Both the position numbers and the translations under genes were made by a program. A DNA stretch of 64,000 bases from Octopus vulgaris (taxonomy: Eukaryota), in NCBI GenBank assembly GCA_951406725.2, contig OX597825.1, forward strand, positions 58,280,001 to 58,344,000. The letters are read 5' to 3'. Under the pieces are notes generated by a model. That model did no database searches. It had not been told where the DNA came from and worked only from the letters and a program-made list of their open reading frames with translations. Of the stretch, positions 2,528 to 28,602 are shown piece after piece. The first letter of the stretch is position 1; each line of letters opens with the position of its first letter.

Positions 2528-3116
2528 CTGTTGCATGTAAACATTTGGTATTTTTTGTTCAGTTAACTGCATTGCTCTAGACCTTTTAGCACTTCACTTG
2601 TTAACTCAGTTAAAGAATAATGATTCTTTCTGATATGTATTCCTCATTACTTTATTCTCCATTATCTCCTCTCTCCAGACATACAAACACCTGTACAATA
2701 TCTGAGTGATTTATAATAATGAAGATTAGCTATAATAAGTGTGGTTAGCTAGGACATACACCTAACAGAAACTAGTTTCCAACATTACAAGGCAAGCCCT
2801 TTGTATCTTAAGATCTCATCGCCACTATTTTTACCTTTTTCCAGTTTCACCCCAATCACTCCTACCCCCTCTTTTATAGTAAGAGAAGCTATCTAGCTCC
2901 CCATACAGCAAGGAAACATTATAGATCATTCAGAAATTGTACAGGTATTTGTATGTCTGGAGAAAGAAGATATTGGAGAATAAAATCATGATGAAAATGA
3001 GGAAGACAAAACAGAAAGAATCATTATTCTTTTATTCAGTTAACGAGTGAAGTGCTAAAAGGTCTAGAACAATGTAGTTAACTGAACAAGAAATATTAAA
3101 CATTTACATGCTACAG
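2528..3116. repeat. Imperfect inverted repeat, ~190-bp arms (2528..2717 / 2918..3116)
   Basis: e.g. ctagaccttttagcacttcact vs agtgaagtgctaaaaggtctag; tccagacatacaaacacctgtacaat vs attgtacaggtatttgtatgtctgga. Confidence 0.85.
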
Positions 3117-4134
3117 CTTTTTTCTGTCCTCTCTCTCTCACTTTAACCCTTTATCCCTACTGTGGCTCCATTCATTCAAAGAGGGTCTTGGTTTTACAGG
3201 CTGCATAGCAATCTCACTAGTATTGGTGCCAAAAAAGGGCACCCACTTCACACTGTATAATGGTTGGCATCAGGAAGGGCATCCAGCTGTAGAAAAATTC
3301 TTTCTCAGAAAGAAAGAAATGCCAAATTTCTTGCCTTTTCTCTTCTCCATGAGGTAGTGATACTGTTCTGAAAGTTTGACAATCAGTTTATACCTGTCTC
3401 ATAAGATGTGTGTAATAGTAAAACTATACCTCCTATGCAATAAATATGTAAATATGCTCAGGTTCTAGTTTCTAGTGTCCTGAAAAGTGACACTGAAAAT
3501 TTTATTCCACTAAAATAAACTGTAGCCTTTTCATTGTTCAAAGTGTCTAAGTCATCTATTATAAATCCATTGATGTCTAGAATACACTCATTATAGGAAT
3601 AAAAAGTGAAGCTAGTACATGACTGCTACTGTATTCTTTAAGTGCAGAAGGATGAAAGATAAAAATCAGCTTGGTGGGATTCAAACTCAAAATCTAAAGG
3701 AGTAGTAAATACTGCAACACATTTTGTCTGACACTAATGATTTGTTAAACCCTTTTTAAGGTGAGAAGATGTGATTTTTGTAAAATTTGGCTGTTATTTC
3801 TAGTGATTAGATAGAGCCTGCATGAGTAATTGTGTCACTCAGTCCATATATAATATTTCACATGGTTTGGGCAATGACATGTGACTTTTTATCATAATGA
3901 TTCGCTTAACCTTTTTGCTATCATATTTCTGTTGTTTCAATAAATATTAAAGATGAAGAATTAGTAGTATAACATTGTCATTATTAATCTGTTGTTTTGA
4001 CCATAAATTAGCATGAAATTTTGAGGGAAGGTTCTAATTGATTACTTTAAAATAGGAAGTCTGTATCATAGGATCAGGGCTGGAGTTGATATTAAAAGGG
4101 CTGTGTTCCATAATGTCTGCTCTCTTATGGTGTT

Positions 4135-4370
4135 TAGTGGAGGTACATGGCTTAGTGGTTAAGGTGTTGGGCTTATAATTGTAAGATTGTGGTTTTGATT
4201 GCTGGACCGGGTGACACATTGTGTTCTTGAGCAAAACACTTCATTTCATGTTGCTCCAATCCACTCAGCTGGCAAAAAGAGTAATCCTATGGGGAATGAA
4301 TATGCCATGGAAACCAGGAAGCCAGCCCTTATGAACTGGCATAACTTGAGAAGGAAACTTTATCTTTTTT
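4135..4370 (+). mobile_element. tRNA-derived SINE (family also at ~15480, ~23200, 44945..45195, 45857..46018, ~52475)
   Basis: A-box-like tggcttagtgg, B-box-like ggttttgattgc, shared body gtgttcttgagcaaaacacttcatttc. Confidence 0.65.
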
Positions 4371-5396
4371 ATAATGGTATTTGTATGTAGTGTAGGGATT
4401 TGAAGCCAAACACAAGATATTAAGTAAAGAATCACTAGTAAACCACTACAGTTTCACATGATTCATCTATAAATTAGGCAGTCAGCATGAAACTGTGATA
4501 TAGCTCATAAGATGATGTAAGATGTGCCCGCTTTTCACCTTACAAAAATTGTTTGGTGCCCAACTCAGCCAGATGGCCATAGGCATTCACGCAGATGGCC
4601 CTGGGCATTCAAACAGATGGCTTTGAGCATTCATGCAGACAGCTTCAGGCAGTTATGCAGATGGTGTTGGCAGACTACTAAGCCTTGGCATGATTTCAGA
4701 GCAAATTTTATCTCAAACCTTTCCAACCTCAGAGTAACAGCCAGTATTTTAATTTTTTCACATCCTTTTCATTTGAGTGATTCCAAATAAAATGTTTTGC
4801 AGTTGGGGTTCAAATCCCTACAGGAGACTTCTCCCAATCATTTGCAGTGTTTTGACAGACCACTAAGACAGATGACTTTGGCAGACTTCTATGACAGATG
4901 ACCTCAGTAGACAACTAACAGCAGATGGTCTTGTCAGCATTCACACAGAGCACCTTGGGCACTCACAGAATGCAGATCGCTAAGATCAGACCACCTTCAG
5001 CTTTCAGACAGATCACCTCGAGAAAGAAATAGCTTGTGGTACACAATGTACCACAAGTAGCCTTCTACCAGACACAGTACGGTTCTCTCCTCCCAGTTGG
5101 CTGTTATATTATCAGCATCTTCCTTTTGCAAACAGCCAACACAGTAAATCATATCCAGCAATAAATATGCTACAGGTTAAAAGTTAAAAGTCCATGAATT
5201 GTTTCTTTTATTATACATACAAACGGCTAAGGGTTGCTTCTAGATTCAACTCATTTGTGTCTGGTGTACAGACTCATCTACTGAATGACGACTATAGTGT
5301 TGTAGGATAAAACAGGTTAAGAATCTGACCTCCCAAGTAGGTTCTTTTCTGTCGAAAAAGGGAAGAGAAGAATAGTGAATATCAATGAAAGAGCTA

Positions 5397-6620
5397 AGCT
5401 ATGACTACAGATTGGTCCCCTTCGACAACAATATGTTTCGTTTCAGAAAAAAAAATTGCGTATCTTTTAATGAAATTTTGCAGAGTTATATTTTTGAAAA
5501 TATAGATTACGATTATATTGATTGATAATATTGGTTTCAAATTATGGCACAAAGCCAGCAATTTCGGTGAAGGGGATAAGTTGATAACATCGACCCCAGT
5601 AATCAACTGGTACTTATTTTTTGGCTTCCAAAAGGATGAAAGTCAAAGTCAGCCGCGGCAGAATTTGCTAATATTAAAAATTAATTTTTTTTCTTTCTTC
5701 GCTTATTTGTGTTTTCTTCGGTTTTGGATTTCTATTTATGTGATTCTGGATTATATATGTATCATGTGTGTGTGTGTTATATACGTAATTATTAAATTCG
5801 AAGAATCGAAATAAAGTATAAGTGCTTTCTATAAAAAAAATTAGGTAATCTTTCAGTATATGGTGATTAAAAAGTAAGTAAAGATTGGAGGACTAACAAG
5901 GGGAGATAAATACGTCAGCTTAACGTTGACATTGGCTATAGCCACCAAAAAGTGAGCAAAAGTCTCTTTCTTTGGTACAGAATTCCTCTATATAAGCGCG
6001 TGTAAATATGAAACGAATAAATTATCTGACGTCGTAATTTTCTTTTTACCCGCACCCATATATTCTCCACATTTTGCATATGGGCGTCGTTATTTGTCGG
6101 ATCTACAAAGTTCTGATGCACAATCACTTCGTGAGTGGACATACCGTTATTTAGGTATGAGAGCCTAATTATTTCCTCTTTAATTTTTATTTATTTTTCA
6201 AACACCATCTACTGACAGATTACCAAAATGTTTAAGGTGTTTTGAATTATTCCTCACCTAATTTTATTTCCTTATAACATTTTGAAATGCGTGTTTTTAA
6301 GAGACGATTTTCAGAAATACTTTACAGAGAGTGTTAATTATGTAATGTTAATGTTTGAAACATATAAGCTTGAAAAAGAAAAAAAAGGTGAAAACAGGTA
6401 AAATTACAGAAATTAGTTATCCTAAAGCCAAAGCAGCTGGGGGAGGAAGGAGAAAAACGATCAAAAACTCTTTCGCAAGTCCTTTTTTTGTAAATCTTAT
6501 CAATATAATTGCAATCTACATCATCGAAAACATATTTCTGCAAAATTTCCTTAAATAATATGCAATTATCAGAAAGTTATGACAAAACGGAAGTCTGTGG
6601 CACCAATCTGTACTTGTGCC
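5397..6620 (-). mobile_element. Merlin/IS1016 (ISXO2-like) DNA transposon remnant with terminal inverted repeats
   Basis: 5936..6142 encodes HEVIVHQNFVDPTNNDAHMQNVENIWVRVKRK (Merlin DDE-region motif H..V.H..NFVDP...AH.Q..E..W); ~5406..5522 is an imperfect reverse complement of ~6499..6612; SINE fragment nested at ~5525..5665. Confidence 0.75.
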
Positions 6621-6926
6621 CGTTAATCGAGTCGTTCTCCTTACACAACTTTGGTCAGTTGCTACAGCAACTGTCAATGTTTATTGTGGTACAACGAGAT
6701 TTAATACTGAAGTCTCGATCAAATCTCGTGTTATCTATCATGGCGTCTTACTCTGGTTTGTTTCTCCATTAACTTTCTTCTAAATTTCTTTCTTCCCTTT
6801 TTCATTTGATGTAATTTAAAAAAGAGGAGAAAATAACTATAATAGAAAATAAGCTGTTGTTTGTGATATTTTGTTCATCCAAATACAAACTCGTGGAAGC
6901 TGTGAGCATTGACAGTGTGTTTTATA

Positions 6927-8201
6927 ATGAATCCGTCATCATCGGCTTACAGTGATGATACATATTATCATCAGCATCACCAACGTGGCCAACAGAGTAG
7001 ACCACTACCTCCACCACCAATACCTCCATCACAACAACATCAACCATATGACACAAATAATGACAACTTCTCTTCCAGATCCTACGGCGAGAGCCAACGT
7101 ACGTTCCGCAACTTTCCCCCTAGCGAACAACAGCACCGGGGTACCAGATATAACCATCCTGATGAGGGAAATTATTATAAAGATCATGACTCCAAAAACT
7201 ACCCCCCACCTTACGGCCGAACTGAAGGAGCTTTGCCACCGTATAATTATTCTGATCATCCAAGGTCTAGGCTTGAGCAAGGAAGTAATACTAACAACAA
7301 CAATAATAACACGAGGAACATGTTACATTCGAACTCTCTTCCACCAATCACTAATGACAACAACTACCCGCCGAAATACAGCAGAAGCGGTTTCAGACCA
7401 GAACAGTTTCCTAACACTAACGTACCACCACCACCGCCGCCGCCACGCCCACCGCCATTACACATGCATCAACAAGTGACGACAAGGTTACCGTCACAGC
7501 CACCACCGACTCGTCCTCAACCACCGCTGCCACCACTCATCAGGGACCAAGCTGGATTCTACTCGGGAGTGAATTACATTCCCCAACAGAAGAACGTTGC
7601 AACACCAGAGTATCCGGCCAACTTCAACCTGCCCCCTTTCCCCGGCCTCGACACATCGTGTCCCCCACCTTCCCTGCCGCCTCTGCCACCCCTACCACTA
7701 CCACCGGTGATACCCCATACTTCATCTGCCCCATCCTCTGCTGGTCCATCACCACTGCCTCCACAGTATTTGAAACCTTGTTCTGCACCGATGTATCTAG
7801 GAACCGACAGTTCTAATTCCATTGTTTCTAGCATCCCATCCAATGCCACTTCTGTTCCCCCTCCTCCCCCTCTCGGTCCCAGTTTTATTTCTCCCCCGCC
7901 CCCTCCTCTGGCCGACACCTTAAATACGAATCAATTGCACGGGGATAATAATTTTAATACTCCATCAAACAGTGGACTGTCTGATGTGACTTTAGCGACA
8001 TCAAACTTCAGTGTTCCACCTCCACTCACGCCAGTTTATGGGAACAGGATCCCACAAAAACCTGACAGTTCTGTAGATTCTGAATATTCCCAAATCGATG
8101 ATGCCTTACAACTCCAAAGACAACAAGACAAAGAATGGATTAAGCAAAAGTTTTCCACGAAAATCCAGGACCGGCCTGTAAAGAAACCTTCAACCATCAC
8201 G
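6927..8201 (+). CDS. PDCD7: PDCD7 / U11-59K exon 1 (425 codons, Pro/Asn/Gln/Tyr-rich low complexity)
   Basis: ATG 6927 in the 482-aa ORF; donor ACG/gtatgt at 8202; phase 0 into exon 2. Confidence 0.85.
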
Positions 8202-10740
8202 GTATGTTCAGATTGGAAGATTTTCTTAGCATTTTATTGTTTAGCTCCAGATTGGACAGACGAACGAATGAATGTATTTGACTCGTGTCTTTGTTTCAGG
8301 CATAGTGTATCGAGGAAGACATTATCCAAAGTGTCTTCTGTCTCTTGTATAATTTGAAATGACAATCTACATCTGACAGTGTAGTTGCTAATGTACAAAA
8401 AGATGAGATGGTCACAACTGGAATATCTCTGATCATAGGTCAGCGTGACCAAAGCTGCTTGGTGTTAAATAGCATACGTGAAATATGCTTTCAAGAGTGT
8501 AGATTATGTAATGTTGATATTTCTAACATAAATCGGCATAATTAAATAAATAAAGGGAAAATTGCTTGCAGTATAGAAACTGGTGGTAACAAAGTTGGGG
8601 AAAGGTGGCGATGGTGTTGGGGGTGAAGTATTATCCGAAGTTACACTCCCCTGACATTTTATTTTTCTAAAACGATAAAACTGAAGGGCACCAACTTATA
8701 GTAATACTGATTAGAATGCTTCAGGAAAGAATTACAAGATGGATTCATCAAGCTGAGCCAACTGGTAGGAGACCCAGGAATAGACCGAGAATGAGATGGT
8801 TTAATAATATCCATGGTCTCAGTGGTCTAATGACAGTTGATAAGTCAAGGAGGTGCCTGAGGACTCTCCAAGAATAGTGAGTAGAGAACACGGATGGATT
8901 TGAATATACCCATTTTACTTTTATGCTATTTGTAATGCATTCCTCTTATAAGTTTCAGTTTTAAGGCAGTGTTTATAATGTACTGAGTTAAAGTCTGAGC
9001 CTTGAGTAAATGTGTTGCACAGGTGATTATAAATACTTTGTGGTTCAAATCTAGGCACCATGTTGTGTCCAAGACAGACATTGAATACTCAACAGCTTAG
9101 TCCATTTAGTACCAATGAGTAAAACAGCTTACCATTATAAGCAGCTACACCATTGTAAATTTGAGATGCGTTTCATAAACTTCCACTACTGAGTTCAGTT
9201 TCATGTATATTTTATTGTGAGAAATCGGTGTGGGTATTACAGGTGAAAATATTGTAACTCTTGGGGAAAGTGATTAAGTAATCAGGTTTGGATTTTTCAC
9301 TTGGCAAACCTACAGTTTCTTCATTTTAGTTCTTGTAAATATGCTTAATTGTAAAGTATTAGATGAATATGGCAACAGAATAATCTATAATAGATCAATA
9401 GTTATAGAGTGATATTGATTGGTAGATTATTTTACTGACACAATAAGTAAAACAGCGATCAGTTATATTAATGGATCAAATATGAAATCTGAGGAGAAGA
9501 GCGATGGCTTGTGTCAGTGTAAGAGAATTTGATAAGAGATCAGTTATGGTGAAGGGCATAGTCTCCAATGTTTCTGGCCCTTTGCACTGTGTCTGAGAGT
9601 GGTCATCATTTTTAAGTTCTATGCTGACATAATTTGGATGAAATTTCATGGTCAGATGTCTCTCCTGATGTCAACCTTTATTTGTTTTCATGTATTCCAC
9701 ATCCTCACACATCAGACCTCTGAGCTGTCAGACTTTTTGTTCATTCAGAACATAAACAATACCACCACTGCCCAAGTAGTGTCAATGTAGAGACAGCCTT
9801 CCATACAGTTACTATCAAATTCCATTCACAAGGCATTGATCAGCCCTCTAAAGCAAGAAACATGTTTTGTCTTTTCCCTTCTTTCATTCTTTAATTTCTC
9901 ATCTTCATGCATAAAACCACTCCCCTCACTGTTATAGCTCCCCTCAGTTGAAGGGGATTTAGTCTTGCAAACTTCATGGCTAACTCATTGCAAAAAAGAA
10001 AAATCACAATACAGTGTGTACTGTAAAGTGGATGGTGTTTGGAAGGGCTGTAGAAACCATGCCAAAGCATGGAACACAATGCAGTTTTGGACCTGTCAGA
10101 TCTTGCCATAGATGCTGAAAGATGATTATGATAGTCCTGCCTGTTATTTAAGAAGAGAGTATAAAAGTGTTGTCACTGACATTTTGAGGCTAATTATATT
10201 AATAAGTTATTGCATTGCTTGGATTTAGTAGTTCCTTTCTTGTTTCAAACACATACTCTAATTGATTTATTAGGATGAAAAGCATATAACAGCTATGTTA
10301 ATGAAGATTGCTTTCTTTTTAAATTTAAATATCATGGACATCCTAGTGATTTTGGGATGTGGTACTCCAGGCTGTTATCATTCCCTGGTTAAATATGACT
10401 GCTTTTGAAATAACTCTAACAATCAGGACTATAAATGATCCTTTCACACTAGTGTAAGATTAACAATGGCTAGGTCTGTGCATGTATATATCATATTTCA
10501 TGTGAACGTGAAAATTGATATTAACCCAAAGTGTGCAGAGAAGCACTATTTCATCAACTAATTCCATACTTCAATGTCCCCAGTTAATAATGCGGGTGAT
10601 GGTGATAATCATCTTCATCCACCTAGCTTATACTAATAATAAACTTATATTGTTTATATCGTAATAAACTTTATTGGATCATTGATTCAAATAATATCTG
10701 GTATAATATATCAGTTTTTAAATTCAAATTTGTTATTCAG

Positions 10741-10884
10741 ATCTGGGAATCACAGAATCTTGTCCGTCAAATGCTGCTGACTGCTGGACAACTTCATAAA
10801 TTTAAGAAAACCCTAGAGAATATTCATGAAACTGCCACTGAAGAGGAATGGTTGGCTGAAATTAGAAGAATTGAAGCAACAAAG
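10741..10884 (+). CDS. PDCD7: PDCD7 exon 2
   Basis: ttcag/ IWESQNLVRQMLLTAGQLHKFKKTLENIHETATEEEWLAEIRRIEATK /gtaaca; 144 nt, phase 0-0. Confidence 0.85.
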
Positions 10885-11113
10885 GTAACATATTTATATT
10901 TTATGCATGACACATCTTTTCACTGTTTTTGTTTTACATATTCATTTTTTTATTATGTTAATGTTGGTCAGATGATTCCTGTCAGCAAAATTGTTTTTTT
11001 CAGTTGGATGTTCTATGCAGTTATTTCGCCTGCTGGATATAGAAGCTAAATTTCTCAAATCACACCCTAGTGTTGTGGTAAAAAATAAGGACACAAAATA
11101 ATGTAAACATAGA

Positions 11114-11331
11114 TATAGTAATCCCTCACCATATCGCGGACTCAGTACATCGCGGTTCACCTATCGCGCACTCAATACATCGCTGATTTTTCTGGCTGAT
11201 GTATGTAAATTTATATCGTGGAGTCCTCAGTATATCCAGATATCTGCAGTTGATAGGTAGTTATATTTTTTTAGATTTTAATTATTTCTGTGGAAGGTTT
11301 TGGAACCTGCGATAGTCGAGGGATTACTGTA
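11114..11331. mobile_element. pogo/Tigger-like MITE
   Basis: TIRs tatagtaatccctcaccatatcgc / gcgatagtcgagggattactgta with TA ends. Confidence 0.7.
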
Positions 11332-12384
11332 TACAAAAAAAATGATGGCAGGGCCTGCTTAATCAAAGTTGAATGGAGAGTAACAATTGTGATCTTGGAG
11401 TGGAAACTGTTTATTGTCAGTTGGGTAAATAAGAATAGGTAGAGTTCTTGGTAGGTTTGAAGACACATGTGCAAGAGTTACTGCTCATGATGTGATTTTG
11501 TGTACCAGTGTGTGTTGCCTACCACTACAAATGCATCAAAAACATGGACTATCAAGAAGAGCATTGAAAATAAAGTAAGATCCATGGAATAACAAAAGTG
11601 GAGAAATAACAGGATAATGGTGGTAACAGGTTTAACAGATATTATATGGAGAATAATCCAGAAATGGTTTTTCATGGGATGTGTTTAGAAGAAAGCATAA
11701 CAGATAGTACAGCAAATTGACAAAGTGGACACCATGTCTAGAAAAGAGAATGAAAGGAAGACCATGCAGAAGTTGGAATGAAGACTTTGTTAAATTCTTT
11801 GGCATCCAAACATGCATGAGGAAAACAGCAGATCATGGTTGGTGGAGGCCTTCATCCGGCAGTGGACTGAACAATGTGCAAAAATGATGTATGAGGGGGT
11901 ACTGAAAAGTTCCTGGCTTTAAGGGTATCATGAAAGTTTGATACTTAGTCTGTCCTTCCTCACAGTTGCATTAGTTTATATGTCTCCAGAAGATTGTCCT
12001 TTGCAGATATCCCTAATCGTTTTGGTTGCCTCATTTTCCAAGATCTGATCCTTTCATAATCCACACTCAAGTCTGCAGGTTTTTCTTGGGTTAATTCTAA
12101 AACTCACTCATTACTGCATTTCCCTTTGTCATCTTGCTTACAACACTTTATCATCGCTATATGGGGTGGGGAGTTGGTCAGCTTTGCCTTTCATTCTTTC
12201 AGTGTCTATAAAATATGGTACCACTTGAGTACTAGGGTTAGGGTTGATTTTTATTTTGATGCCAAAATATTGAGACATTGCAAGTGAGGTGTTGACTATG
12301 ATAAACCAACCAACCAACCAATATAAAGACAAAAGCAAAAAAATTGTATTACTTATATATTCCTGAAAAACGTATTTTTTGTAG

Positions 12385-12474
12385 GAGACATTGGAAGATT
12401 TACGTCGGAAAATCACTGATAAAAATCTGATTGAAGAACTGGAAAAGAAGGTGAAAGCAAGACTAAAGAAAAGG
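12385..12474 (+). CDS. PDCD7: PDCD7 exon 3
   Basis: tgtag/ ETLEDLRRKITDKNLIEELEKKVKARLKKR /gtaagt; 90 nt, phase 0-0. Confidence 0.9.
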
Positions 12475-14340
12475 GTAAGTTTATTGATTGTTTTACTAAC
12501 TGATCTATGTGACCAAGATGTCTGCCAAGGCAGACAACACTCAGACATTTCATCTGTTAATGTCCTGTTTCTTATGGGGGATATTTCCAGTTTCATTAGC
12601 AACAATGTTAAAATTCAGAGTTGCCTAAAACATTTCATGAGATATTATTACTACTAGTGCATGACCCCTTATTTTATACCTGGAATAAGTAATTCTTTCT
12701 TTCAAGGAAATACAGGTATATATATATTCCACAAAGGATTAAACAAAGGAACATAAAACAGTATTGAAATAAAAGAAACATTTAATAGATCAAAATACAT
12801 ATTAGTTTTTAACTATTTTTCTACATGCAATATTATATACAACAAACCACAGACAGAAAATTTTGACAGCCAGTGTCTGTATATATACTATAATTTTAGA
12901 AAATTTTATATTTTCATAATTGGGATGCTGGTGAGATCCTCTTGGTAGAGTAAATTTACACTGACCAGCAAGAATTTTTACCTCTGATGAATTCCCAACA
13001 ATATAGTTATTAAAATTCAGTAAGAGAAAAACAAATATTTATTCATAAGTTAAGAGATTCATCATTTTTTTTGTTCCTTTCTGTAATGAATTACTTCTTT
13101 TAAGAGAAAATAAATATGCACACAGAAGCAGACATACATATGGCAAGAGAGTTAGAGAGAGACAGAGAGTGTATTCAGTGAGAGCTCAAGATAAAAAGTG
13201 ATGGAATCTTCTTGTTGTATCACTTGCTTACACTTTGTGAAACTACTCATTCTTCATTCATGACAAATTGTTCAATAAATAATAAAATGAATTTTAAAAT
13301 GCTTGTAAGCAAATAATCATTCAACAATATTCTGAAATGATTGAACGCGAGAAACTGAAGTGGACATTGCCTGAGTCATCTAGGTTACTTGTGTATTGAG
13401 TGAGAGACTGAGGTAAAAACAGTGATAGGAAGATAAGCAAATAGATAGATACATGGCATTTCTTATTGTGAGGAAAGTAACTTATTTAAATTTAACGGAG
13501 AAAAATGAATATTTATTTATAAGTTTTCTTACGATAAATTAAAAAGAAACAATGATTCATAATAGTTCTTTCCATTTTGATGGAATTTTATTTTTAAGAG
13601 TGGTAGGTTAATGCTTTTAATAACTGTGTTGAGAAATATATAAGTGTGCGTGTGTACATAAGTACATACATACTGTAGGAGGGAGAGCGGTGAGGGAGTA
13701 GTGAGCCAAACCAGAAGTTATGTTGCAGACCGATTCCACAAAAATCATCATAATGATTACTGTTATTATTACCATCTTCATCATTATTATTAGTTGTGGC
13801 TAAGTTGGCCTTTTGTCATTCCAGAGTCAATACAATAAATTACCAGTCATGTATTGGGAATAATTTCACTGACCTTCCTGCCTCCCAAATATTCTGCCTT
13901 GCTAAAGCTATAAACTACTACTACTACTACTTGGGTGGCAGAGTCATTAGCATGCCAGATGAAACTACTTGTGGCAGTTCATTGTCTTTACATTCTGAGT
14001 TCAACTGCTACTGGGATTGACTTTATCGCTCATCCTTTCAAGATCAATAAAATAAGTACCATTTGAGCATAGGGGTCGATGTAAATGACTTGCCCCTCTC
14101 CTGAAATTGCTCACCTTGTAGCAAAATTTGAAACCATTACTACTACTACTACAACTACTAAAGCAGTGAGGTAGCAGTATTTCATCTGTTGCTACATTCT
14201 GAGTTCAAATTCTGTCAAGGTTGACATTGTCTTTCATCCTTTTGGAGTCAATTAAATAAGTACTAGTGAAACACTGGGGTCAATGTGATCGACTTATCCC
14301 CTCCCCCCAAATTTTAGGCCTTGTGCCTACAGTAGAAAGG

Positions 14341-14381
<41 letters not shown>

Positions 14382-14805
14382 CATCATTATTAAGGTGGCT
14401 TTTTATGATCTGAGTTCAAATGCCACCCTGGTCATCTTTGCCTTTTATCCATTTGGGTGATTAAATAAAATACCAGTCAGGTATTGATGGGTGGGATCAC
14501 TTTAATCAACTAACTCTTCTTTTCAAAAATTTCTGGCTTTGTGCTAAGTTTAGAAACCATTATTATGAATGGAGCTCTGAATCTCAAAATTGGAAGGAAG
14601 TTGTACACAGCATTGTAGCATTGAGTTATGTCCCTTTATGATCTTAGTTTAGCTCTTTTGCTTGCTTGGTGGCTGGTAGTATTTTAAATTTACCTTGAGT
14701 AATCAATTCAGGAAATGGGAGGGGTAGTTTTATCATTTATACCATCTCTCAAAACTATGTGGCCTTATGTCTGTGATGGAAGTTAAGGGTATCGGATGTT
14801 ATTGA

Positions 14806-15029
14806 GCTAGCAGAAGCGTTAGCACGCCGGGCGAAATGCTTTGCGGTACTTCATCTACCGTTACGTTGTGAGTTCAAATTCCGCCGAGGTCGACTTTGCC
14901 TTTCATCCTTTCAGGGTCGATAAATTAAGCACCAGTTACGCACTGGGGTCGATGTAATCGACTTAATAACCTATGTCTGTCCTTGTTTGTCCCCTCTATG
15001 TTTAGCCCCTTGTGGGTAATAAAGAAATA
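14806..15029 (+). mobile_element. Young tRNA-related SINE with 18-bp target-site duplication (older copies at ~13935, 14160, 20277, 28170, 35940-36515, 59910)
   Basis: ggtatcggatgttattga at 14788..14805 and 15030..15047; CpGs retained; B-box-like gagttcaaattcc. Confidence 0.85.
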
Positions 15030-15739
15030 GGTATCGGATGTTATTGACTTTAAGATACTGGGCTAAATGGTTTATAGTATTTAGTTATGGTTCCTTATGT
15101 TCAGAGTTCCAATTTCACTCAAGTCACATTTATTCTTCATTCCACTTGGGTGATGGAAAATAAGACATGTGCTGTGATCAGTTTACAACAATTCTTCAGC
15201 TAATGCCTGACTTTCTGCTACAAGAATTCCTCCTCCTACTCCCCATCATCATCATCATCACTATTATTAGGGTGTTGGAGTGGCAAAAATGTGAGCATAC
15301 TGGAATAATTTCCTACTGTATTCAAATTTCATCCCCCTTACGTCAAGTGTCCAAAACTTGTAAGGTTGGTGGCTGATTTTTGTTCCCACCCTGCCAAAAG
15401 GTTCATCTAAGCAAGTACCAGTAAAATAGTTTCATTCTATCAACAGTATATACTCCTCCTCTACACATTTGTGTCCTCGTGCCAGTGTGATGGCCTAGCG
15501 TTTGCACTCATGATCATGTGATTATGGTTTTTATTCTTAGACGTGATGGTGCTTTGTGTTCTTGAGCAAAACACTTCATCTCAAGTTGCTCTATGATCAC
15601 TTCAACAGCTGGTATGTGGTACACCATGCACCTGTTCAGGTAACATAGATTTGATGGAGGGGGTGAGCTAATATACAGCACATACATTTGATCTCTCTAA
15701 AACAAATAATTTGTGCAGGTCTTTTGGCAAAAGATGAAC

Positions 15740-16523
15740 GATCATACATCATCTTCAACAGGATTGGAATGATACAGAGAAGGTTATTGTATTGTGAATG
15801 GATGAGGATAGCTGTATGAAAAAATGTCACACCCTAACGGTTGTGGGAACCTGTGGAAGAGGTAGACCCAGGAAGACCTGGGATGAGGTGGTGAAGCATG
15901 ATCTTTGAACATTGGGCCTCACGGAGGCAATAACAATCAACTGAGACCATTGGAGATATGCTGTGCTTGAGAAGACCTGGCAAGCCAAGTGAGACCGTAA
16001 CTGTGGCCTATGCGAGTGTCGCATAACCGCCCCATTCAAGAGTACTTTTCAATCGTTGGGCAATATACTGTGCTTGAGAAGACCTGGTGAGTCAAGTGAA
16101 ATCATTGTCGTGGCCGATGCCAGTACCGCCAAACTGGTACCTGTGCCAGCTGACATGTAAAAAGCACCATACGAGTGTGGTCAATGCCAGTCCTACCAGA
16201 CTGGCTCCTGTTCTGGAGGCACATAAAATGCACCATACGGACGTGATCGATACCAGTGCCACCTGACTGGTTCTGTGCTGGTGGCATGTGAAAGGCACCA
16301 TTCACGTCTGGTTGTTATCAGTGTTGCCTGACTAGCCCTCATGCTGGTGGCATGTAAAAAGCACCCACTATACTCTTGGAGTGGTTGGCATTAGGCAGGG
16401 CATCCAGCTATAGAATCTTTGGTAGATCAGACTGGAACCTGGTGCAACCTTCTGGCTTGCCAGTCCTCAGTCAAACCATCCAACTCATGCCAGCATGGAA
16501 AGCAGACATTAAATGATGATGAT
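15740..16523 (+). mobile_element. RTE LINE 3' end / RTE-derived non-autonomous repeat with (GAT)n tail
   Basis: GRGRPRKTWDEVVKHD remnant near 15855; shared block ggaagggcatccagct..ccatgccagcatggaaagc..gatgatgat recurring many times in both orientations. Confidence 0.8.
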
Positions 16524-17993
16524 TAATTAAGTAATGCAGTGGTACACTATGCATATTTTTTATTTGCATAGCTACAGTTAGTAGCTATGCAAGTACAGCT
16601 ACTAATTATTGTATCATAAATACTAAAGTGATACTTGTTTTGAAAACCTGGTAGACTTGAAACAAATATATTTTTGAGTCTTGTTTATGGAGTATTAAGT
16701 AAAAACCTACTCTAAATGGCATAAATCACAAGTTTGATCTTGTGACGATGATGTTTGTTGGAGAAAAACTTTTACCTTCCAACCTTGTGATTCATTTGTA
16801 ATTGTAATTAACACAGGAAAACCTAAGATTTTGCTGAAGTTAAAGTACCACTGAACATAGTTGGTGTTTTAATAAGTGGCTTTTATGAAGAGGCTGTTTC
16901 TTGAATGTAAGTTGGGTTTTGTAGAAGCTGATCAACTTGTGGACCTAGGTAACCAAGATATTATCTTGATGGTGTTGCAGACATAATTTCTATCTAGTGG
17001 AAATAACATAATGATAGCTGCTTAAAAGAAACAGTAGAAATACAGGTAGAATATATACAGATTGATGAAAGAAATAGATGATAAAAAAAATAACTGACTA
17101 AATAACAAAAATTAAGAGAGACAGTGGCTGGATAAATAAGTTGCCATATTTTCCAGCATACAAGTTGAATTTTTCGGCCCCAAAGGTAGTCAACTAAAAC
17201 ACCAAGATGACTCCAGAGGACCAAAAATTCCATGTAAAATGCATCAGGATTTGGAAAGATGGTGACAATGTTTGAATGTTTATGCTATGCTTACACTATA
17301 TACAATGTTGACTTGTCATCATCATCATTTAGCATCTGTTTTCCATGCTGGCATGGGTTGGATGATTTGACAGAAGCTGACTAAGCAAAAGACTGCACCA
17401 GGATTCAGTATCTGTTTAGGCATGTTTTTTACAGCTGGATGCCCTTCCTAACACCAACTACCCCACTCAGTGGACTGAGTGCTTTTTATGTGGCACCAGC
17501 ACAGGTGAGGTCAGTTTTGGCATAGTTTTTACAACTAGATGCCCTTCCAAGCTCCAACTGCTTTACAGTGTGGACTGGATGCTTTTTATATGGCACCAAC
17601 ATTGGCAGGGTCACCAAGTAACTGGCAAGGAAAATATGGTAAAATTTTCTAAACTGTTGACATCTTCTTTAGATAATTACATTTGAATTAGATTAATTTC
17701 TGATTATCATTAAAACTCTTTTTCTTGTATATACATATCATATATGTATCTGAACCAGTCTGGGGCTGTTTGATAATGACTTGAGATCAGAACTGAATGA
17801 AACAAAAGTCATAGGCACAAAAAGTATGATCCTATTAATGATAATTCAACTTGGATATTTAGACCTTTAATGGCATTAGGAAGGGCATCCAGATGTAAAA
17901 ACCATGCCAAAGTAGACATGGAGCCGAGGCAGCTCTTCAGCTGGCCAGCTCCTGTTAAAACATCCAACCCATACCGGCATGGAAAAATATACC

Positions 17994-18213
17994 TTAACCC
18001 TTTAGTTTTTAAACCAATTATACCCATATTGTACTTGTTATATGTTCAAACTGGCCAGATCTGGCCTCTCACACCTACCTTGCAGTATCTTTTTAAAATA
18101 GACAACCACATCATCGATATCTCAAAGTTACAAGATAATGTGAGATCAATTCCAAACAATGTGAATAAATAAACATTATACTCGACAGAATGATCTTAAT
18201 ACTTAAGGGTTAA
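17994..18213. mobile_element. piggyBac-type MITE nested in an RTE 3' end (sister copies 24931..25137, 61879..62108)
   Basis: TTAA-CCCT...AGGG-TTAA termini; host RTE tail resumes after the second TTAA. Confidence 0.75.
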
Positions 18214-18276
18214 AGGATAATGATGATGAATGGATGAAAAAAGGAAAATGAAAGGTTGGAATACCATGAGTAAAAT

Positions 18277-18665
18277 CATCATCATCATTGTTTAACGTCC
18301 ACTTTCCATGCTAGCACGATTTGACTGAGGACTGGCAAACTAGATGGCTGCACCAAACTCCAATCTTGATCTGGCAGAGTTTCTACAGCTGGATGCCCTT
18401 CCTACTGCCAACCACTCCAAGAGTGTAGTGGGTGCTTTTACATGCCACTGGCACGGGGGCCAGTCAGGCAGTACTGGCAACAACCTCGCTCGAATCTTTT
18501 TACACATACCACCAACACAGGTGACAGTAAGGCGCTGCTGGTAACGATCACACTCGAATGGTGCCTTTTATGTGCCACTGGCACAGAAGCCAGTTAGCCG
18601 CTCTGGCAACGATCACTCTTGGATCTGCTTTTAGCACCCTACTAGCACGGGGCTCAAGTGCCAAT
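18277..18665 (-). mobile_element. RTE-derived repeat, reverse orientation (others at 17317, 19080, 22022, 33054, 38181, 49925, 62418, 62890)
   Basis: catcatcatt gtttaacgtccactttccatgct..cagctggatgcccttcct. Confidence 0.75.
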
Positions 18666-19802
18666 GAAAAGAAATAAGTTATTAATCCTTTTGATGCTAA
18701 CTTGCCTGATATCACCCCTGGTTCCATGATACAAGCTTCCTGTTTTAAAGTGGTCTAAATTAAAACTTTCCATCAGAATTTTATGTTAATCAGTTTGAAA
18801 CACCAGTGTAATAATGACAGTTATTTTACTAAATTCTTTATTAGTTTCAAAATTAATTTAAACAATGGCAGAGTATTTGAATGGAAATATGGTAATAAAA
18901 GGATGAAAGGAAACATGAATGAAGTATTACAAAAATAAAAACGGCTGTGCTTGAGAAGACCTGGCAAGCCAAGTGAGACCGTAACTGTGGTCTATGCGAG
19001 TGTCTCATAACCGCCTCATTTAAGAGTACTCTTCAATCGTTAACCATTTCTTACACACACACACACACACATCCTCCTCCTCATCATCATTTAACATCCA
19101 TATTCCATGTTGGCACATGTGATTTCACAGGATCCATTGGGTCCAAGAACTGCATCATGCTCCTGTGTCTGCTTTGACATGGTTTCTATGGCTGGATACT
19201 CTTCCTAATGCAAGCCACTTTACAGCATGTACTGGGTGCTTCTAATCATGCCACCAGCACCAGTAAGGTTGCCATGCAGCTCACATGACTACAAACCCTG
19301 AGAGAGTGGAGTCATCTTCATGCTAGGAGATGAGAAATATGAAAGAAGGTGGGTGGTACAGAGCAGGTTCTTGAAGAGGATCTGCATGGTTACTCACATT
19401 TAGTTGGAGAGGGAGAGAAAAAGAAGAATGAAATGATCAGTAGGAGCTTCAAAGAGATAGATAATGGCAATGAGGTGTCTGTGTGGCCCCTCAAGACACA
19501 AGGTGAGTAGAAAAATGGCTGGATAGGGGATTGGTTTGCAAGGTTATATAAATACATACGTATATATTATTTATTTAAAAAGAATCTATATTGTCTGTCA
19601 TATCTGAAACTTTAACTGAATTCCTATTTGGTTGCAGTATGTATGGCTCAAGCTTCCCTGGTGTGACCTATTGGAAATATACATGGTGTACCTTTAGGAA
19701 GTCTATATTCCATTTTGACTGACCAATCTAGGCAGTTACTCCACTTGCCTGTTTCAGCCTTGTGCCTCTTTAAAAAAAAAAATCAGATAAAACAAAACAT
19801 AT

Positions 19803-19911
19803 ATATCCTTTGTTTAAAACAAAAATTATATTAATGCTCTGGCTAATATATCAAAGTTGATCAAAGAATGGGCTTCGAAACTCATATATCCTTTTACTTT
19901 GAATATCCTTT
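19803..19911 (+). promoter_or_regulatory. Cluster of three U12-type 5' splice-site motifs (USSE-like tandem at 19886/19903) in PDCD7 intron 3
   Basis: ATATCCTTT at 19803..19811, 19886..19894 and 19903..19911; tandem pair 17 nt apart start to start; host gene encodes a U11 snRNP protein. Confidence 0.7.
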
Positions 19912-20039
19912 ACATTAATGCACAATATTTGTGTGTCAGGGAGTGACATTTTTTATTTTCTTTTTATTGTAAGTTCAAGCAATTATGTGTTTCTAGTGAC
20001 CATCCCTGTCAGTGCCTTTTTGTATTTCTGCAATATAAG

Positions 20040-21120
20040 TGGATATCATGTTTATAACATGTATTGATAGGTTATTGTTATAGTACACTTAAAGATGTGT
20101 GATAGCATCATTATATTATCATATTAATGGGGTGTACCTTGATGTCATGTTATATAGCATGTCCTGTTATTATAGTATGTTTCTTTTTAATAGCTTGTTA
20201 TTATAGTTGATATCATGCTGTTATAGCATTTGTTGATATCCTATTATTTCTTCTGTTAATATTGTTTATAGAACTAAGGTGGCAAGCTGGCTGAATCGTT
20301 TGCATGCTGGTTAAAATGCTTCACAGCATTTCATCCATCATTATGTTCTGAGTTCAAATTCCACCAAGGTTGACTTTTCCATTCATCCTTTTGGGATCAA
20401 TAAAATAACTACCAGTTGAACTCAGAGGGTCAATGTAATCGACTTAACTCCTCCTAAAATTACTGACCTTGTACTAAAATTTGAAATCAGTATTGTTTAC
20501 AGAACTTGCTGATACAGTATAAATTGCTATTACATCTGATGATATTACAGTTACTGCATGTGTTGATATCACATTGTTATGATGATTGTTATAGCCTTTG
20601 AAAGCATAGCACTGATATTATTATAGCATATGTCAATGTTGCACTGTTATGGCATTGTGCTAATATCATGTCATAGTTCATATCGATATTATGTAATTGT
20701 GCATTAGCCAATATCATGTTATAGTTCATATTGATATCATATTGTTGTGTAATAGCCAATATTATGTTGTAGTAAATGTTGATATCACATTGTTGTGCAA
20801 TGGCCAATATTACACTGCTATAGTATATGTTGATTTTACTGTTATGTGTCAATATTGTTATGGCACATGTTAATATCACTGTTATAACATGCCAATATCA
20901 CTGTGTTGTGGCATATGTTGATACCATGTTGTGCATGTGTCGGTACTGTGTTGTTATAGCACATCAATATTACATAGTCATAGCATATGTCATTATTGAA
21001 CTGTTATAACACCCATTTATAACACGTTGGCATCCATCATGTAGATATAACATGTGTTGATATCATAATGCTATAACACTTATAACACTTGTTGGTATCA
21101 TCTTGTCACAATAGCTATAT
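20040..21120. repeat. Degenerate AT-rich minisatellite (~25-30 nt units), interrupted by a SINE at ~20277..20490
   Basis: recurrent gttgatatca..tgttatagca motifs. Confidence 0.6.
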
Positions 21121-22519
21121 ATTTTGACACTACAGCAAATATTCTATTTGATTCCAAACAACTTCACCAAATTCCACCGATAATAATTCCAAGTTTGATG
21201 GTAACACTTTTTTTTCTTTGCCTGAATATTTTCAACTTCTTTGAAGCATAAGTCACCTATGGGCATCACATTTCCTTCTTAGCTAATAAATTAATTGAAT
21301 TCATTAATAAAATATTTCTTTTTCCTTTAAAGCTGCGATGAAGATTCAACTTTCAGTTAGTGGTTTTCGTTGGTTGGATGTACAATCAAACCAACCAATG
21401 AATAACAAGGTGGAAACATATAATGACATGGTTTTTTTATGTTGTTTGTTTCAGCTGTAATTTATTTGTATTTCACTGTTTTATATTTCTGTTTTCTTTC
21501 CTTCTTTAGCTCTCACACAAACACATACACACACAGATAGAAAGGAAGATAAACACAGGTATTCTTAACATATGTATATATACATGGAATACAAAATGCA
21601 GATTACAGAATAAAGAAAACAAAAGGAGTTATGTAACAGTCTTATCTCGAAAGCTGACTTGGGAGATCAGTGACTTATGCTGTAATCAAATGCATACATA
21701 ACAGCTGTGCATGATGTCATAGGTGTGTGTAACAACATAAGTTTCAATGAATTTGTTTAAGCTAGGCCTGGTGATCCTCTTTGGGAGAAAAGTATTTTTT
21801 ATTCCATAATTTGTATCTTGTATTTCACATAGATGTACGGATTAAGCCTACCCATGTTTATCTGCCTTTCTATCTACATAACAGCTTGGCTAGGATCATT
21901 CCTAAAGCTAATTTTCAATGCCTGAGGTACTGGCTCTGGATGAAGAGGTTGGAGTAAAAATTCTTAATAATCTGAGCACTAACCCTTATTCTCTATACCA
22001 TGCTTACATTGCATTCTCTTACATCATCATCATTTAATGTCTGCTTTCCATGCTGGCATGGGTTAGACAGTTTAACTGGAACTGGTAAACTGGAGAACTG
22101 CTTCAGGTTCCAGTCTGATTCAGCATGGTTTTTAACCCCTAACTGTAATGCCAACTACTCCAAAAGTGTAATGGATGCTTTTTACATGCCACTGGCATGA
22201 GTGCCATTTTCTTGACTGCCAGCAACGGCCATGACTACAATTTCATGGGTGTTATTTACATGACACTAGTAATGGCCATGACTGTGGTTTCATTTGGCTT
22301 GACAAGTATTCTCAAACCCAGCATATCGCCAAAGGTTATATTGCCTCTGTGAGGCCTGACATTTGAAGATTATGCTTCACAACCTCATCCCTCACCTCCA
22401 TGAGTCCCAACATTTAAGGATCATGCTACTGACAACGGCCACAATTATGATTTCATGGGTGCCATTTACATGACACTGGCAATAGCCATATATATATATA
22501 TATGTGTGTGTGTATATAT

Positions 22520-23050
22520 ATATTAGAAAAAATAAGGTACTCAGAAATCTGGATGGTTGTACATTTACAGATTTTTATTAATATGTCACGTGTTTTTATA
22601 AATCATATATTAGCCCTTGCATCTACTCTAGCAGAATCTTCAGATTTGGAGATTCTACTAGAGTAGAATATGTATAGGAATAATAAATTTGTACTCCACA
22701 AAAGTATAAAGTAACCCATCAGATTAATGTAAAATTGTTTTCATTATAACTGAACATCTGCTCTAGTAGAATCTGGAGATTCTACTAGAGTAGATGCAAG
22801 CGCTAATATCTGATTTATAAAAACATGTGACATATTAATAAAAATCTGTGAATATAAAACCATCCAAATTTCTGTGTACCTTATTTTTTCTAATATATAA
22901 TACCTGTTCATCACTTCCAAACCTTCTAACACACACACACACACACACACTAATGTTTGTTTTTATGTTCACTTATAATGAAAACAATTTTGCATTAATC
23001 TGATGGGTTAATTTATACTTTTGTGGAGTACAAATTTATTATTCCTATAC
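22520..23050. repeat. Nested inverted-repeat element between (TA)n/(CA)n tracts, probably a Penelope-like terminal repeat
   Basis: 22520..22640 inverted vs ~22775..22897; 22671..22748 inverted vs ~22973..23051; hammerhead-like motif in both arms. Confidence 0.65.
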
Positions 23051-24550
23051 AAGAATGTTCTGGACAGTATCTTTGAAATTTCGGTCAGCTAAGCCATTGT
23101 CAGTGGCCAAAAAGCAAACTGTTGGTATTTCAATTTCATTTCATTACAGTTGTTTCAACAGTTGATAATGACTTATCAGTACATATTATATTGATAATGA
23201 GGACATGTAGCTTAATGGTTAAGGTGTCACTCATGATCACAGGATTGTGGTTTCAATTCCCAGATCAGAGGTGCATTGTGTTCTTGAGCAAAACACTTCA
23301 TTTCTCTATGCTCAGCAGTAAATGAGTAACCCTGCAACGAATTGGTATTCCATTGAGAGGGAATGTTGATCTGTCTGCCTAGCCAGTGGGATGGCATCAT
23401 TCAAAAGCTATAGCAATGTGAGGAAGCACATTGTGACCAGTGGTGTATAACAACATCTGAGAGTCTGCTCAATACAGCGGTACCGTGCTACCAGTAATTA
23501 ACCACCTCATCAGCTAGCATGTTGAAATACCCAATGTTCATCTGGTGAGGTGAATGGTTATCCATATATAATTATTGATTATTAACAATCAAAACGATTG
23601 TAATGAAATAATTGAAATACCATCAGTCTACTTTCTTGTTATCCTTTTAAACTCTGTGTGTGTATGTGTGTGTGCTTTTGCATGCATTCTGTTGTGAATG
23701 AATGCAAGAGAATGAACTCTGCTAAAAGTACTCCAAAACATGCTGCAGATTTTAAACCAGGCAACATTTTAGACCCATTCTGCCAATTGTTTATTGGAAA
23801 GCTTTGAAAAAATCAAGACACTCATTTACTCCCTACTCTGTCCACATCTTCCTAAAAATTTCCAGATTCATCTTTACCTGGAGAAAGCACATTAAGTTCT
23901 GCCTGAAACTGGTTAAGGTATTCAAAAGAGAGAGCATAGAGAAAATTTATTGATTTAAACATTAACCAGAGGGTGTGGCTTTCAATTCCACTTTTCCTTC
24001 CCATTGCTATTTTATTGTTGAATATTTTCCACTTACTGAAATTGAAGTTCTGGTTTCTGTTCTCAATTGGAATCACTTCACTTGCATTGTGGAAGTGAAA
24101 TTTATGTTAAGCTGCTATTTTTCTTCTTTTTTTTTTTCAATTTTTTTCTTTCATTTTTTTTTGGGGGGGGGGGGGCAAATAGACTGTGTCTATAACCTTC
24201 ACAGTCTCTCTGAGATAAGGGGCCTATGTCATCATCATTTTAACATCCATTTTTTTTTCCATGCTTACATGGGGTTGGACAGAGTTTATTCAGACAGATA
24301 TTCAACGGCTGGATGCCTTTCCTGTTGTCAACCCCCACCTGCTTCCAAACTAGGTAATATTTCTCTATGACGAAACATGTTTTCACAGAGGATTGGAAAT
24401 CAATGACACTACTTGTATGACAGTGACAATCAACCCATGCTGGCATGGAAAGTGGACGTTAAACGATGACGACGATAATGATGATGCAGTGTCACGACAA
24501 GGACACAAACACATGCACACACACACACATTCTCACAAATACAAACATGT

Positions 24551-24581
<31 letters not shown>

Positions 24582-25959
24582 TATATATTTGATGAATTCC
24601 TTTTAGTTTGAAAGAGTCCCAAATAAAACTAGTTGTCTTTCATTGTTGTTAACTGAATCTGTTGTTTCAGCAGTAATCCAGGTTCTGATATTATGATTTT
24701 GTTCGTCATAAAAGAACTATATACTAGAGTATCTTAACATTACTCTGGGCTTTCCATAGCATAGATTTTCACCAGGAGGAGTGAGGGAAGATTTGTGTTA
24801 CAAAATAGACTGCTCTATGTGTGAGATTTGTAAGGTTTTTTCATAGCACTGGGTGTTTTTCATTGAGGAGTTTAGATCTAGCTACAACCATGAGGGTGGG
24901 GGATGGAATCATTGCAGTAAATACTGAATTTTAACCCTTTAGGATTTAGACAGGCCATATCCATCCCAAATATCCTACCTGTTTTATATTCAAAAAGGTA
25001 GGATCCAGCCTCTCATGCCTACCTTATATCATTCAAAAAATACACAATCACAAAGCTGTGATATAATGCATGATTAATTCAAAACAATGCAAATAAACAT
25101 TACATTTCACAGAGTAATCTAAATGCTAAGAGGTTAATGAACAAGGAATGGGTTTTATAATACCATACTTGTCTAGGATAAGAACATTAAGGGTATCTGG
25201 ACGTAGGGATTTTCTGTGGCCTCAATGGGTTTCGGCTGTTTCATTCCTTAATTATAACATACTTTTGACTATAGCAAATGCATGTCTATGAGGTGGCCAT
25301 CTAGTGGAGTCCATACACCTTTCACAACCTATGTTACACCATTGATGATCTATTCTGAAATTGTTAATTTTTATTCATGGATAAAGAGTTTATAAACAAT
25401 GAAACGATATAGCATTTCTTGGCAGAAGTTTGAAGATGACCAAAATAATGATGTTCGCTCCATTGATTTCAATGTATAAGTGTTTGAAGGAGAGGATTTA
25501 AAGAACCAAAAAGGTGAGAAAGAGAAAAAAATGTGAGAAAAAGGAAAAACGACTTTAAAAATAAAAGCATAAAAGAAGCTGCATCTATTTGTGATGGATG
25601 TGCAAATGTAATTTGAGTCCAGGTAATAATAATAATGATAATTAAACTGTCAACAGAGAAAACCTTCGCCAAGTCAGGAATGATAGAAAATACATGGTTT
25701 AAAACTGGATATCAAATGATGCTATCTGATGGAGTTTCTGTTAGTAGAAACTCAAGAAAATCAAAGTCATACAACACATGGTGTGTAAATTGAAACAGTA
25801 AGTCTTGTACAAAGTTCATCACAGTATGGCTGACTTTACAGAATTGTTTTCAAATATTACTAGAATTCATACATATCAACTTTTCTCATGCAACAGAAGA
25901 TTTTTCTTTTTAAATAAAATAGTTCCCAGTTCAATTGTAGCCCATATTTTAGATATATG

Positions 25960-26250
25960 TTTGATGGCCGTCGTGTATTGTACTATTGCTTATATATAGC
26001 TGTATTATCTACCTATATACTGTAGTGTGGCCAAATCTACCTGTATTTTGCATTATGGCCATAACTATTTGTATTCAGTATTATGACCATACCTACCTCT
26101 ACTGTATAATGTAACCATATTTTGTCTTGTGATTATACCTACCTATGTCATGACGAGATCTACTTATACTGTGGCTATATCTACCTGTATTCTATTTTAT
26201 AGTTATAATTTACACTTCTGTTTTATATTGTGACCATATCTAACTATAGT
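25960..26250. repeat. Degenerate ~27-nt tandem repeat upstream of PDCD7 exon 4
   Basis: recurrent tggccatat/ctacctgtat units. Confidence 0.5.
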
Positions 26251-26329
26251 GTAGAAGCACTCTGCTCTGCTTTCATTTTTAATGATGTTCCTTTCTGCTT
26301 GAAATGAGTTTTCTCTGAATGATTTGCAG

Positions 26330-26461
26330 GCGAGGCTGAAACGCTTACGGAAAAAAAAATATGAAGAACGAGAAAGGGCTATGTCTTTCAGGAAGGAACT
26401 GCATCGGACATTGGATGATTGGAGAGATTCCATATCTCAGAAAGAACAGCAAATTAAACAG
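26330..26461 (+). CDS. PDCD7: PDCD7 exon 4
   Basis: ttgcag/ ARLKRLRKKKYEERERAMSFRKELHRTLDDWRDSISQKEQQIKQ /gtaagg; 132 nt. Confidence 0.9.
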
Positions 26462-26774
26462 GTAAGGGATGATGATGATGACGATGATGATTGTTGTGGT
26501 GGTCTGTTTTTTTTTAATTTTGTTTTTTTGTTAGTTTTTTGGGTAAATTTTCTATTTCAATTTGACAGTAATATGCATATTCAGAAATCTATCCTGTTCC
26601 CCTACCCTTTATTTATTTTTCTCCCTTTAACTGCCTGATTACAAAACTAATATGTATATATATATACTCTTAGAAAATAGGTATGGGTTTGTGTCGGGAA
26701 GGGCATTCAACTGTAAAACAGTGCCTCAATAATATATTCGTGTTACCTATAGGAACATGAAAAAATAACAAGTG

Positions 26775-27483: not shown

Positions 27484-27622
27484 GAGAAAGAAATGAAAGT
27501 GGCTGTTGACTCAGTCCTGGGTGAAGTTCGTAAGAAGAAGTCTGATGTTGCCAAAATGCTGGAACTGATTGGAAACTTGAGTAAACTGAGGAAAATCCGC
27601 AAAGAGAATGTTGCTAAGAAAG
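27484..27622 (+). CDS. PDCD7: PDCD7 exon 5
   Basis: EKEMKVAVDSVLGEVRKKKSDVAKMLELIGNLSKLRKIRKENVAKKG resembles vertebrate PDCD7 ELKAAADGVLSEVRKKQAD..LEKLRKLRKEAAARKG; phase 0-1. Confidence 0.93.
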
Positions 27623-28489: not shown

Positions 28490-28602
28490 GCTTATATACA
28501 TTATTCCATTCTGATAAGAAATTTGAGGAAGACATCTCTGGCTTACAAAGGATGCTGAATAACCAGATGGATGTCTATGAAGCAGAGCAGCGTACCCTTA
28601 TG
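28490..28602 (+). CDS. PDCD7: PDCD7 exon 6
   Basis: ttcag/ LYTLFHSDKKFEEDISGLQRMLNNQMDVYEAEQRTLM /gtaaac (cf. YEAEERALRVML); phase 1-0. Confidence 0.93.

Follow-up and report, generated by a model that had tools for sequence, protein, structure and literature searches.

The window, by which we mean the whole 64,000-nt stretch of Octopus vulgaris DNA analyzed here, carries on its forward strand the gene for PDCD7 (U11-59K), whose coding span (positions 6927 to 34939) was resolved into 9 exons by in-silico splicing and protein comparison. Exons 1 to 6 lie at 6927–8201, 10741–10884, 12385–12474, 26330–26461, 27484–27622, and 28490–28602, and 3 further exons lie near 30.7–30.9, 33.9–34.0, and 34.8–34.9 kb. 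Compared by eye, the first 6 exons joined in silico correspond to the first 634 residues of P0001, a protein named Octopus vulgaris PDCD7, and the exon 5 peptide is 100% identical to this protein. P0001 clusters with the proteins of O. sinensis and O. bimaculoides and matches human PDCD7 from the U11 snRNP structures in the PDB (E 1e-43). PDCD7 had already been named as the host gene in the sequence-only reading that this analysis followed up, and the protein matches confirm it. In the parts of the sources available to us, PDCD7 is reported as the backbone of the U11 snRNP (PMC11874965) and as bridging U11 to factors of the major spliceosome (10.1101/2020.05.18.101246), which makes it a sensible control point.

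The last position of exon 3, in phase 0, is 12474, and the first of exon 4 is 26330. The intron between them, intron 3 (12475–26329, forward strand, 13,855 nt), is a phase 0 intron of the U2 type (GTAAGT ... CAG) with many interspersed repeats. Between 2 of its repeat-like stretches lies an 810-nt gap (19432–20241) that is repeat-free when compared with the window and a set of other loci, and positions 19600–20100 match a single place in the animal's own 2.8-Gb genome, in agreement with the non-repetitive setting that had been claimed for the features described below. Within 19700–19990, no Rfam family was matched and the predicted RNA fold was no better than that of shuffled sequences (z 0.36). 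Elsewhere in the window, the reverse strand carries a LINE-type element (46457–49303), whose unbroken frame of 949 codons includes endonuclease and reverse-transcriptase domains, and an ankyrin-repeat exon of a neighboring gene (40271–40603), while a weak tRNA match on the forward strand (45610–45682, 32.9 bits) is possibly the head of a short repeat.

U12-donor-like motifs in PDCD7 intron 3

The motif ATATCCTTT, which resembles a U12-type donor, starts at 19803, 19886, and 19903 on the forward strand, the last 2 copies having a 17-nt period. The lone copy (19803–19811) lies 45 nt and the tandem of 2 (19886–19911) 128 nt past a candidate acceptor that ends at 19757. All 3 perfect 8-mers on the sense strand of intron 3 fall within 110 nt, 0.67 being expected per shuffle of the intron, and the tandem arose in 1 of 2000 shuffles and the triplet in 0 of 2000. 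The cluster exceeds chance for this intron. Taken singly, the 7-mer shows no enrichment in the 64-kb window (18 against 17.5 expected), and neither does the exact tandem in the whole genome (35 occurrences against 31 for a reversed control). Because the tandem occurs genome-wide at background level, its weight rests on its host gene and place. At the genome-wide rate, 0.00009 tandems are expected on the sense strand of PDCD7 intron 3, and, across minor-spliceosome genes taken to total 300 kb, 0.002 at this spacing or 0.017 over nine spacings; these figures apply to the intron and the gene set alone, the element having been picked after many windows and motifs were screened. Some of the other tandems in the genome are equally perfect. 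One of them, both copies of which begin with G (L012:1501-1526, G000:C6:19962506), has pyrimidine-rich AGs approximately 130 and 150 nt upstream and no gene recognized within 40 kb; it may be a chance match or an element of a long intron.

The 3 PDCD7 copies are predicted to pair with the 5′ end of this genome's U11 at −6.5 to −7.1 kcal/mol, compared with −6.5 kcal/mol for the real U12 donor of RNPC3 and −4.7 kcal/mol for an imperfect copy at 20236. The genome has 5 matches to the U11 snRNA gene (L040-L043 and G000:C18:43402840), and of the 4 that were read 3 keep the full 5′ pairing end, which is changed in L043. The final intron of RNPC3 (G000:C8:58698155-58696040, reverse strand, approximately 2.1 kb) is a genuine U12-type intron of the GT-AG class, and both its donor and its branch point are clear. 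Together, the U11 genes and this intron indicate that the minor spliceosome works in this genome.

Candidate splice sites and a predicted poison exon

Upstream of the motifs, a candidate U2 acceptor (19736–19757) has 16 pyrimidines in 20 positions, the best tract among the 11 AGs in 19560–19885; the 5 constitutive PDCD7 acceptors that we checked score 11 to 17 of 20. Downstream of them lies a candidate U2 donor, GTAAGT (19969–19974), with a weak exonic side. Used together, these sites would delimit a 211-nt exon (19758–19968) holding all 3 motifs. Continued from exon 3 in its phase, the frame would run for 10 codons from 19758 before a stop, and the 211-nt cassette also shifts the reading frame, so that a poison exon is plausible here, as a candidate deduced from frame and length. 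The motif copies, the acceptor, the donor, and the early stop had all been described in the sequence-only reading, and direct reading of the sequence bore out each of them as sequence. The branch point proposed with them fared less well: the heptamer GACTGAC is present at 19717–19723, but 2 AGs (19731 and 19735) intervene between it and the 19757 acceptor, which makes its assignment uncertain.

A second candidate U2 acceptor (19615–19637, 13 pyrimidines of 20) would open an exon at 19638 that stops after 19 codons. One contig of a related organism (organism B, below) begins at 19637, the G of this acceptor, which is where a contig of the exon 3–19638 junction would start; this is a weak hint of the second acceptor and could be chance, the odds of such a start being approximately 15% given 11 AGs in 325 nt and 5 contig starts nearby. 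As to distance, Niemela et al. (2015) reportedly placed the tandem 25 to 50 nt downstream of its target acceptor. The lone copy, at 45 nt, lies within this range and the tandem, at 128 nt, lies outside it, and the tract of the only AG found 25 to 50 nt ahead of the tandem, at 19856, is poor (11 pyrimidines in 20 positions).

Divergence of the motif region in relatives

The motifs and the 19757 acceptor lie in a repeat-free block (19637–19978, forward strand) that differs little in 2 relatives according to contig alignments. In organism B, 1 of 294 positions differs in 19637–19933, against 14 of 556 in 2 other wholly intronic pieces (Fisher p 0.025; a fourth piece, with 2 differences in 202 and running into exon 4, is left out of this test). 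In organism C, 16 of 365 aligned bases differ in 19651–19978, a count in which 37 bases enter twice and to which 16 gap letters come in addition; the pieces concerned are the sole repeat-free intronic ones among the 8 listed. Exon 4 of organism C has 7 differences in 126 coding positions, 4 to 5 of them at approximately 25 synonymous sites, and compared with this rate, the block is less diverged (p 0.03 to 0.007, with neutral divergence taken from exon 4 alone). Organism C shares 3 amino-acid changes with the O. bimaculoides protein (residues 496, 519, and 523). These alignments, from a few longest pieces of runs chosen for holding the stretch, point to constraint at the level of the block as a whole, and the low divergence reaches the acceptor region upstream of the motifs. 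A metagenome search for intron 3 of animal PDCD7 yielded 1 PDCD7 stretch among 316 candidates, a 3′ fragment without intron 3. The metagenome contig L053 carries the last exons of an animal PDCD7 and is probably host DNA.

Sequencing runs across intron 3

Part of the stretch is contained in 20 of 24 sequencing runs, none of them recorded as RNA (their kinds are guesses), which carries no information on expression, and 4 of the 24 were aligned to 12340–26500 at likeness 88: 2 of organism A, 1 of organism B, and 1 of organism C. Repeat-derived contigs filled the resulting tables. None of the joints and loose ends listed (15 of 1185 and 24 of 5526, respectively; for letter differences, 40 of 269) falls at 19758 or 19968. 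The constitutive joint of exons 3 and 4 is likewise absent from them, which renders this result uninformative. Contigs from runs X4, X7, and X14 (3 of the 4 runs) span the 19757 acceptor unspliced and one X1 contig so spans the 19969 donor, and contigs read through all 3 U12-donor-like motifs, although rare forms get lost from contigs. The depth at exon 3 equals that at exon 4 in 3 runs, and the listed piece of one record, 1124 nt in length, aligns at exon 4; this suggests that spliced mRNA is present. With 4 repeat-like X7 pieces excluded, 19 of the 20 near-identical organism A and B pieces listed lie at or downstream of 19348 (19348–26357); this spread would fit retention of the intron's 3′ half as well as a library bias toward 3′ ends. 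Depth was low or zero in repeat-free bins of the upstream intron (e.g., 16597–17069), an observation to which we give no evidential weight. Among 49 short and 7990 near-length protein candidates, no truncated PDCD7 ending in the poison peptide was found, such products being rarely called.

Usual USSE hosts and other minor-spliceosome genes

According to the available text of a 2021 review (PMC8329584), USSE regulation occurs in SNRNP48 and RNPC3 only, and no USSE in PDCD7 is described in the literature searched, which is in line with the suggestion that PDCD7 is an undescribed host; the original USSE papers and their supplements lie outside that search and may bear on novelty and distance. In the parts of PMC3584512 and PMC12179342 available to us, no further USSE host genes appear. 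The octopus SNRNP48 (U11-48K; L046:3863-5155, reverse strand, G000:C1 at approximately 163.650–163.651 Mb) is one intact open frame of 431 codons with an intronless coding sequence, matches human 48K (E 1e-31), and is apparently single-copy, being the sole real match among 16 candidates. An intron is required for the known poison-exon switch, which this coding sequence therefore cannot contain. C4 also carries a two-finger CHHC gene (L032/L033, G000:C4:57.80 Mb) that we take to be GTSF1-like, and C3 what looks like a broken processed copy of it (L044, G000:C3:80037805).

We scanned 7 gene regions of 30 to 100 kb each (PDCD7, RNPC3, SNRNP48 (50 kb), SNRNP35, SNRNP25, ZMAT5, and RBM41) for tandems whose 2 copies together have no more than 1 mismatch, at spacings from 12 to 25 nt. 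The gene called ZMAT5 is presumed to be so from an N-terminal motif; the mapping was confined to coding exons and covered ZMAT5 and SNRNP25 in part, and ZCRB1 (31K), which was not located in the genome, is outside the scanned set. A sense-strand tandem was present in 1 of the 7 regions, that of PDCD7. None was found in the regions of RNPC3, SNRNP48, SNRNP35, SNRNP25, ZMAT5, and RBM41, from which more degenerate elements or elements at distant UTR exons could escape, and none in the controls (350 kb of antisense strand and 424 kb of partly overlapping background). Allowing 2 mismatches added 6 sense pairs against 4 antisense pairs, which is about background, and those near RNPC3 and SNRNP48 sit upstream of the coding start. 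The sequence-only reading had asked whether these 2 genes keep a USSE in the same species: SNRNP48 is intronless and the RNPC3 region is without a tandem at this threshold. The gene matched by a second RNPC3 search pattern proved to be RBM41, not RNPC3, and then led to RNPC3.

Long unbroken frames were seen in several genes for RNA-binding proteins, namely SNRNP35 and a gene that we presume to be ELAV-like (the 2 frames being at L090:2416-3288 and L093:1011-1952, both on the reverse strand), as well as in 2 multi-RRM genes (G000:C10:102.746 Mb and C23:9.278 Mb) whose frames have 661 and 643 codons. Genes of this class may commonly have lost introns here.

Discussion

PDCD7 encodes a U11/U12 di-snRNP protein, and its intron 3 contains U12-donor-like motifs with a U2-type 3′ splice site predicted upstream of them. 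In the published USSE system, as given in the accessible part of PMC5473595, an upstream acceptor is activated through exon definition by bound U11, and the resulting RNA undergoes decay or stays in the nucleus; in human cells, nuclear retention applies both to the 48K exon that contains the USSE and to the long isoform of 65K (PMC5473595). By analogy, U11 or U11/U12 snRNP, when abundant, would bind the PDCD7 motifs without splicing there and would recruit U2-type factors to the upstream acceptor, most likely that at 19757, via exon definition; the lone copy at 45 nt may define the exon while the tandem may stabilize binding. Exon 3 would then join the intronic exon and meet a stop after 10 codons. 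The RNA would either close at the 19969 donor and undergo nonsense-mediated decay or retain the rest of the intron and stay nuclear, and with either outcome U11-59K would drop when U11 snRNP is high. We consider such a U11-sensing negative-feedback element the best explanation of the locus, with a probability of roughly 0.5. The host gene, the pairing with U11, the rarity of the cluster, the apparent constraint in 2 relatives, and the usual hosts without a tandem speak for the USSE reading put forward from the sequence; the part of it that does not fit is the distance of 128 nt between the tandem and the acceptor. The distance from USSE to acceptor is constrained, according to the available text of PMC8329584. 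We did not file the element as a USSE on account of this distance, set against 25 to 50 nt, and because use of the acceptor is a prediction, and we call it USSE-like rather than a proven USSE. As judged from sequence comparisons, it is a real and probably functional U11-binding element in a newly reported host gene.

Three other explanations were weighed against the feedback element. The motifs could be a chance cluster in an AT-rich intron, in a block that is constrained for another reason (a different regulatory element or an unrelated cryptic exon) or that appears so by a sampling effect. The tandem is no commoner genome-wide than its reversed control, many windows and motifs were screened before the PDCD7 cluster was picked, the constraint p-values are modest, the geometry departs from the rule of 25 to 50 nt, and none of the 15 of 1185 joints listed is at the candidate sites, all of which speaks for this reading. 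However, a coincidence would have to place 3 perfect copies within 110 nt, as 0 of 2000 shuffles did, on the sense strand of a U11 snRNP gene and beside the best acceptor of the stretch, in a genome where the 2 usual host genes have no tandem, and we regard it as unlikely. Alternatively, U11 bound to the motifs could mainly stall the removal of intron 3 and hold unspliced pre-mRNA in the nucleus without producing any new exon. The distance of 128 nt would then require no explanation, and the unspliced contigs across acceptor and donor, like the concentration of 19 of the 20 near-identical pieces at or beyond 19348, would be accounted for, although a 3′ library bias could produce the same spread. 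The precedent cuts both ways: in the part of PMC5473595 available, nuclear retention of human 65K requires U11 binding to the USSE, but it also requires USSE-directed splicing. Retention by itself would, moreover, leave the low divergence of the acceptor region upstream of the motifs to be explained, and we think it improbable as the main mode of action.

Least probable of the 3, in our estimation, is that one of the motifs truly serves as the donor of an alternative minor intron of the AT-AC type, in which case the minor spliceosome itself would make the unproductive isoform. A U12-type intron has, besides its U12 donor, a U12 branch point 10 to 20 nt ahead of the acceptor. In their pairing with U11 the motifs equal the real donor of RNPC3, and a weak branch-point-like 9-mer near 25246 is followed by AC dinucleotides (25246–25273), but a strict U12 branch point is absent from 19800–26330 (6 loose matches), whereas the minor intron of RNPC3 has one. 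Contigs also read through all 3 motifs, and a donor would not need 3 copies. There is precedent for such an arrangement in Drosophila dUrp, in the available text of PMC3584512.

If the feedback element is real, the location of the motifs bears on how it came about. The PDCD7 switch could have taken over once the introns of SNRNP48, and the ancestral switch along with them, were gone. We tentatively propose, at somewhat less than even odds, that in octopus the U11 switch was lost from the intronless SNRNP48 and is missing from RNPC3, and that a three-site version newly arose in PDCD7. A third host in a genome where the usual hosts have no tandem would mean that selection keeps a U11-sensing loop and not a particular gene, and a relocation would mean that the U11 particle, not the gene, is the level at which the loop is conserved, and that the loop could evolve anew in another subunit and with another geometry. 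The 3 copies in PDCD7, one near the acceptor and 2 far from it, would also be a natural setting in which to test the rules that distance and duplication follow in U11-driven exon definition.

Comparison with known systems

With the USSE of SNRNP48, as it appears in the accessible parts of PMC5473595 and PMC8329584, the octopus element shares tandem U12-donor-like motifs in an intron of a gene for a U11 snRNP protein, a U2 acceptor upstream of them, and a predicted premature stop. It differs in its host, PDCD7, in having a third copy upstream, in the 128 nt between tandem and acceptor, and in the position of its motifs inside a candidate 211-nt cassette, and the octopus SNRNP48 is itself without a coding intron. 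The USSE of RNPC3 (available part of PMC5473595) resembles it in that the level of U11 cross-regulates a protein that is not itself a reader of the 5′ splice site, and in that the motif would remain in the unproductive RNA and could hold this RNA in the nucleus. The 65K element, however, lies in the 3′UTR and alters UTR length, whereas that of PDCD7 lies mid-gene and would truncate the protein. In the cross-regulation of U1C and U1-70K and in the AS-NMD of the dUrp U12 intron, as given in the portions of PMC5473595 and PMC3584512 available to us, splice-site-like sequences in a gene for an snRNP protein likewise read the level of an snRNP; those systems rely on the major spliceosome or on a genuine minor intron, whereas the PDCD7 sites look like decoys.
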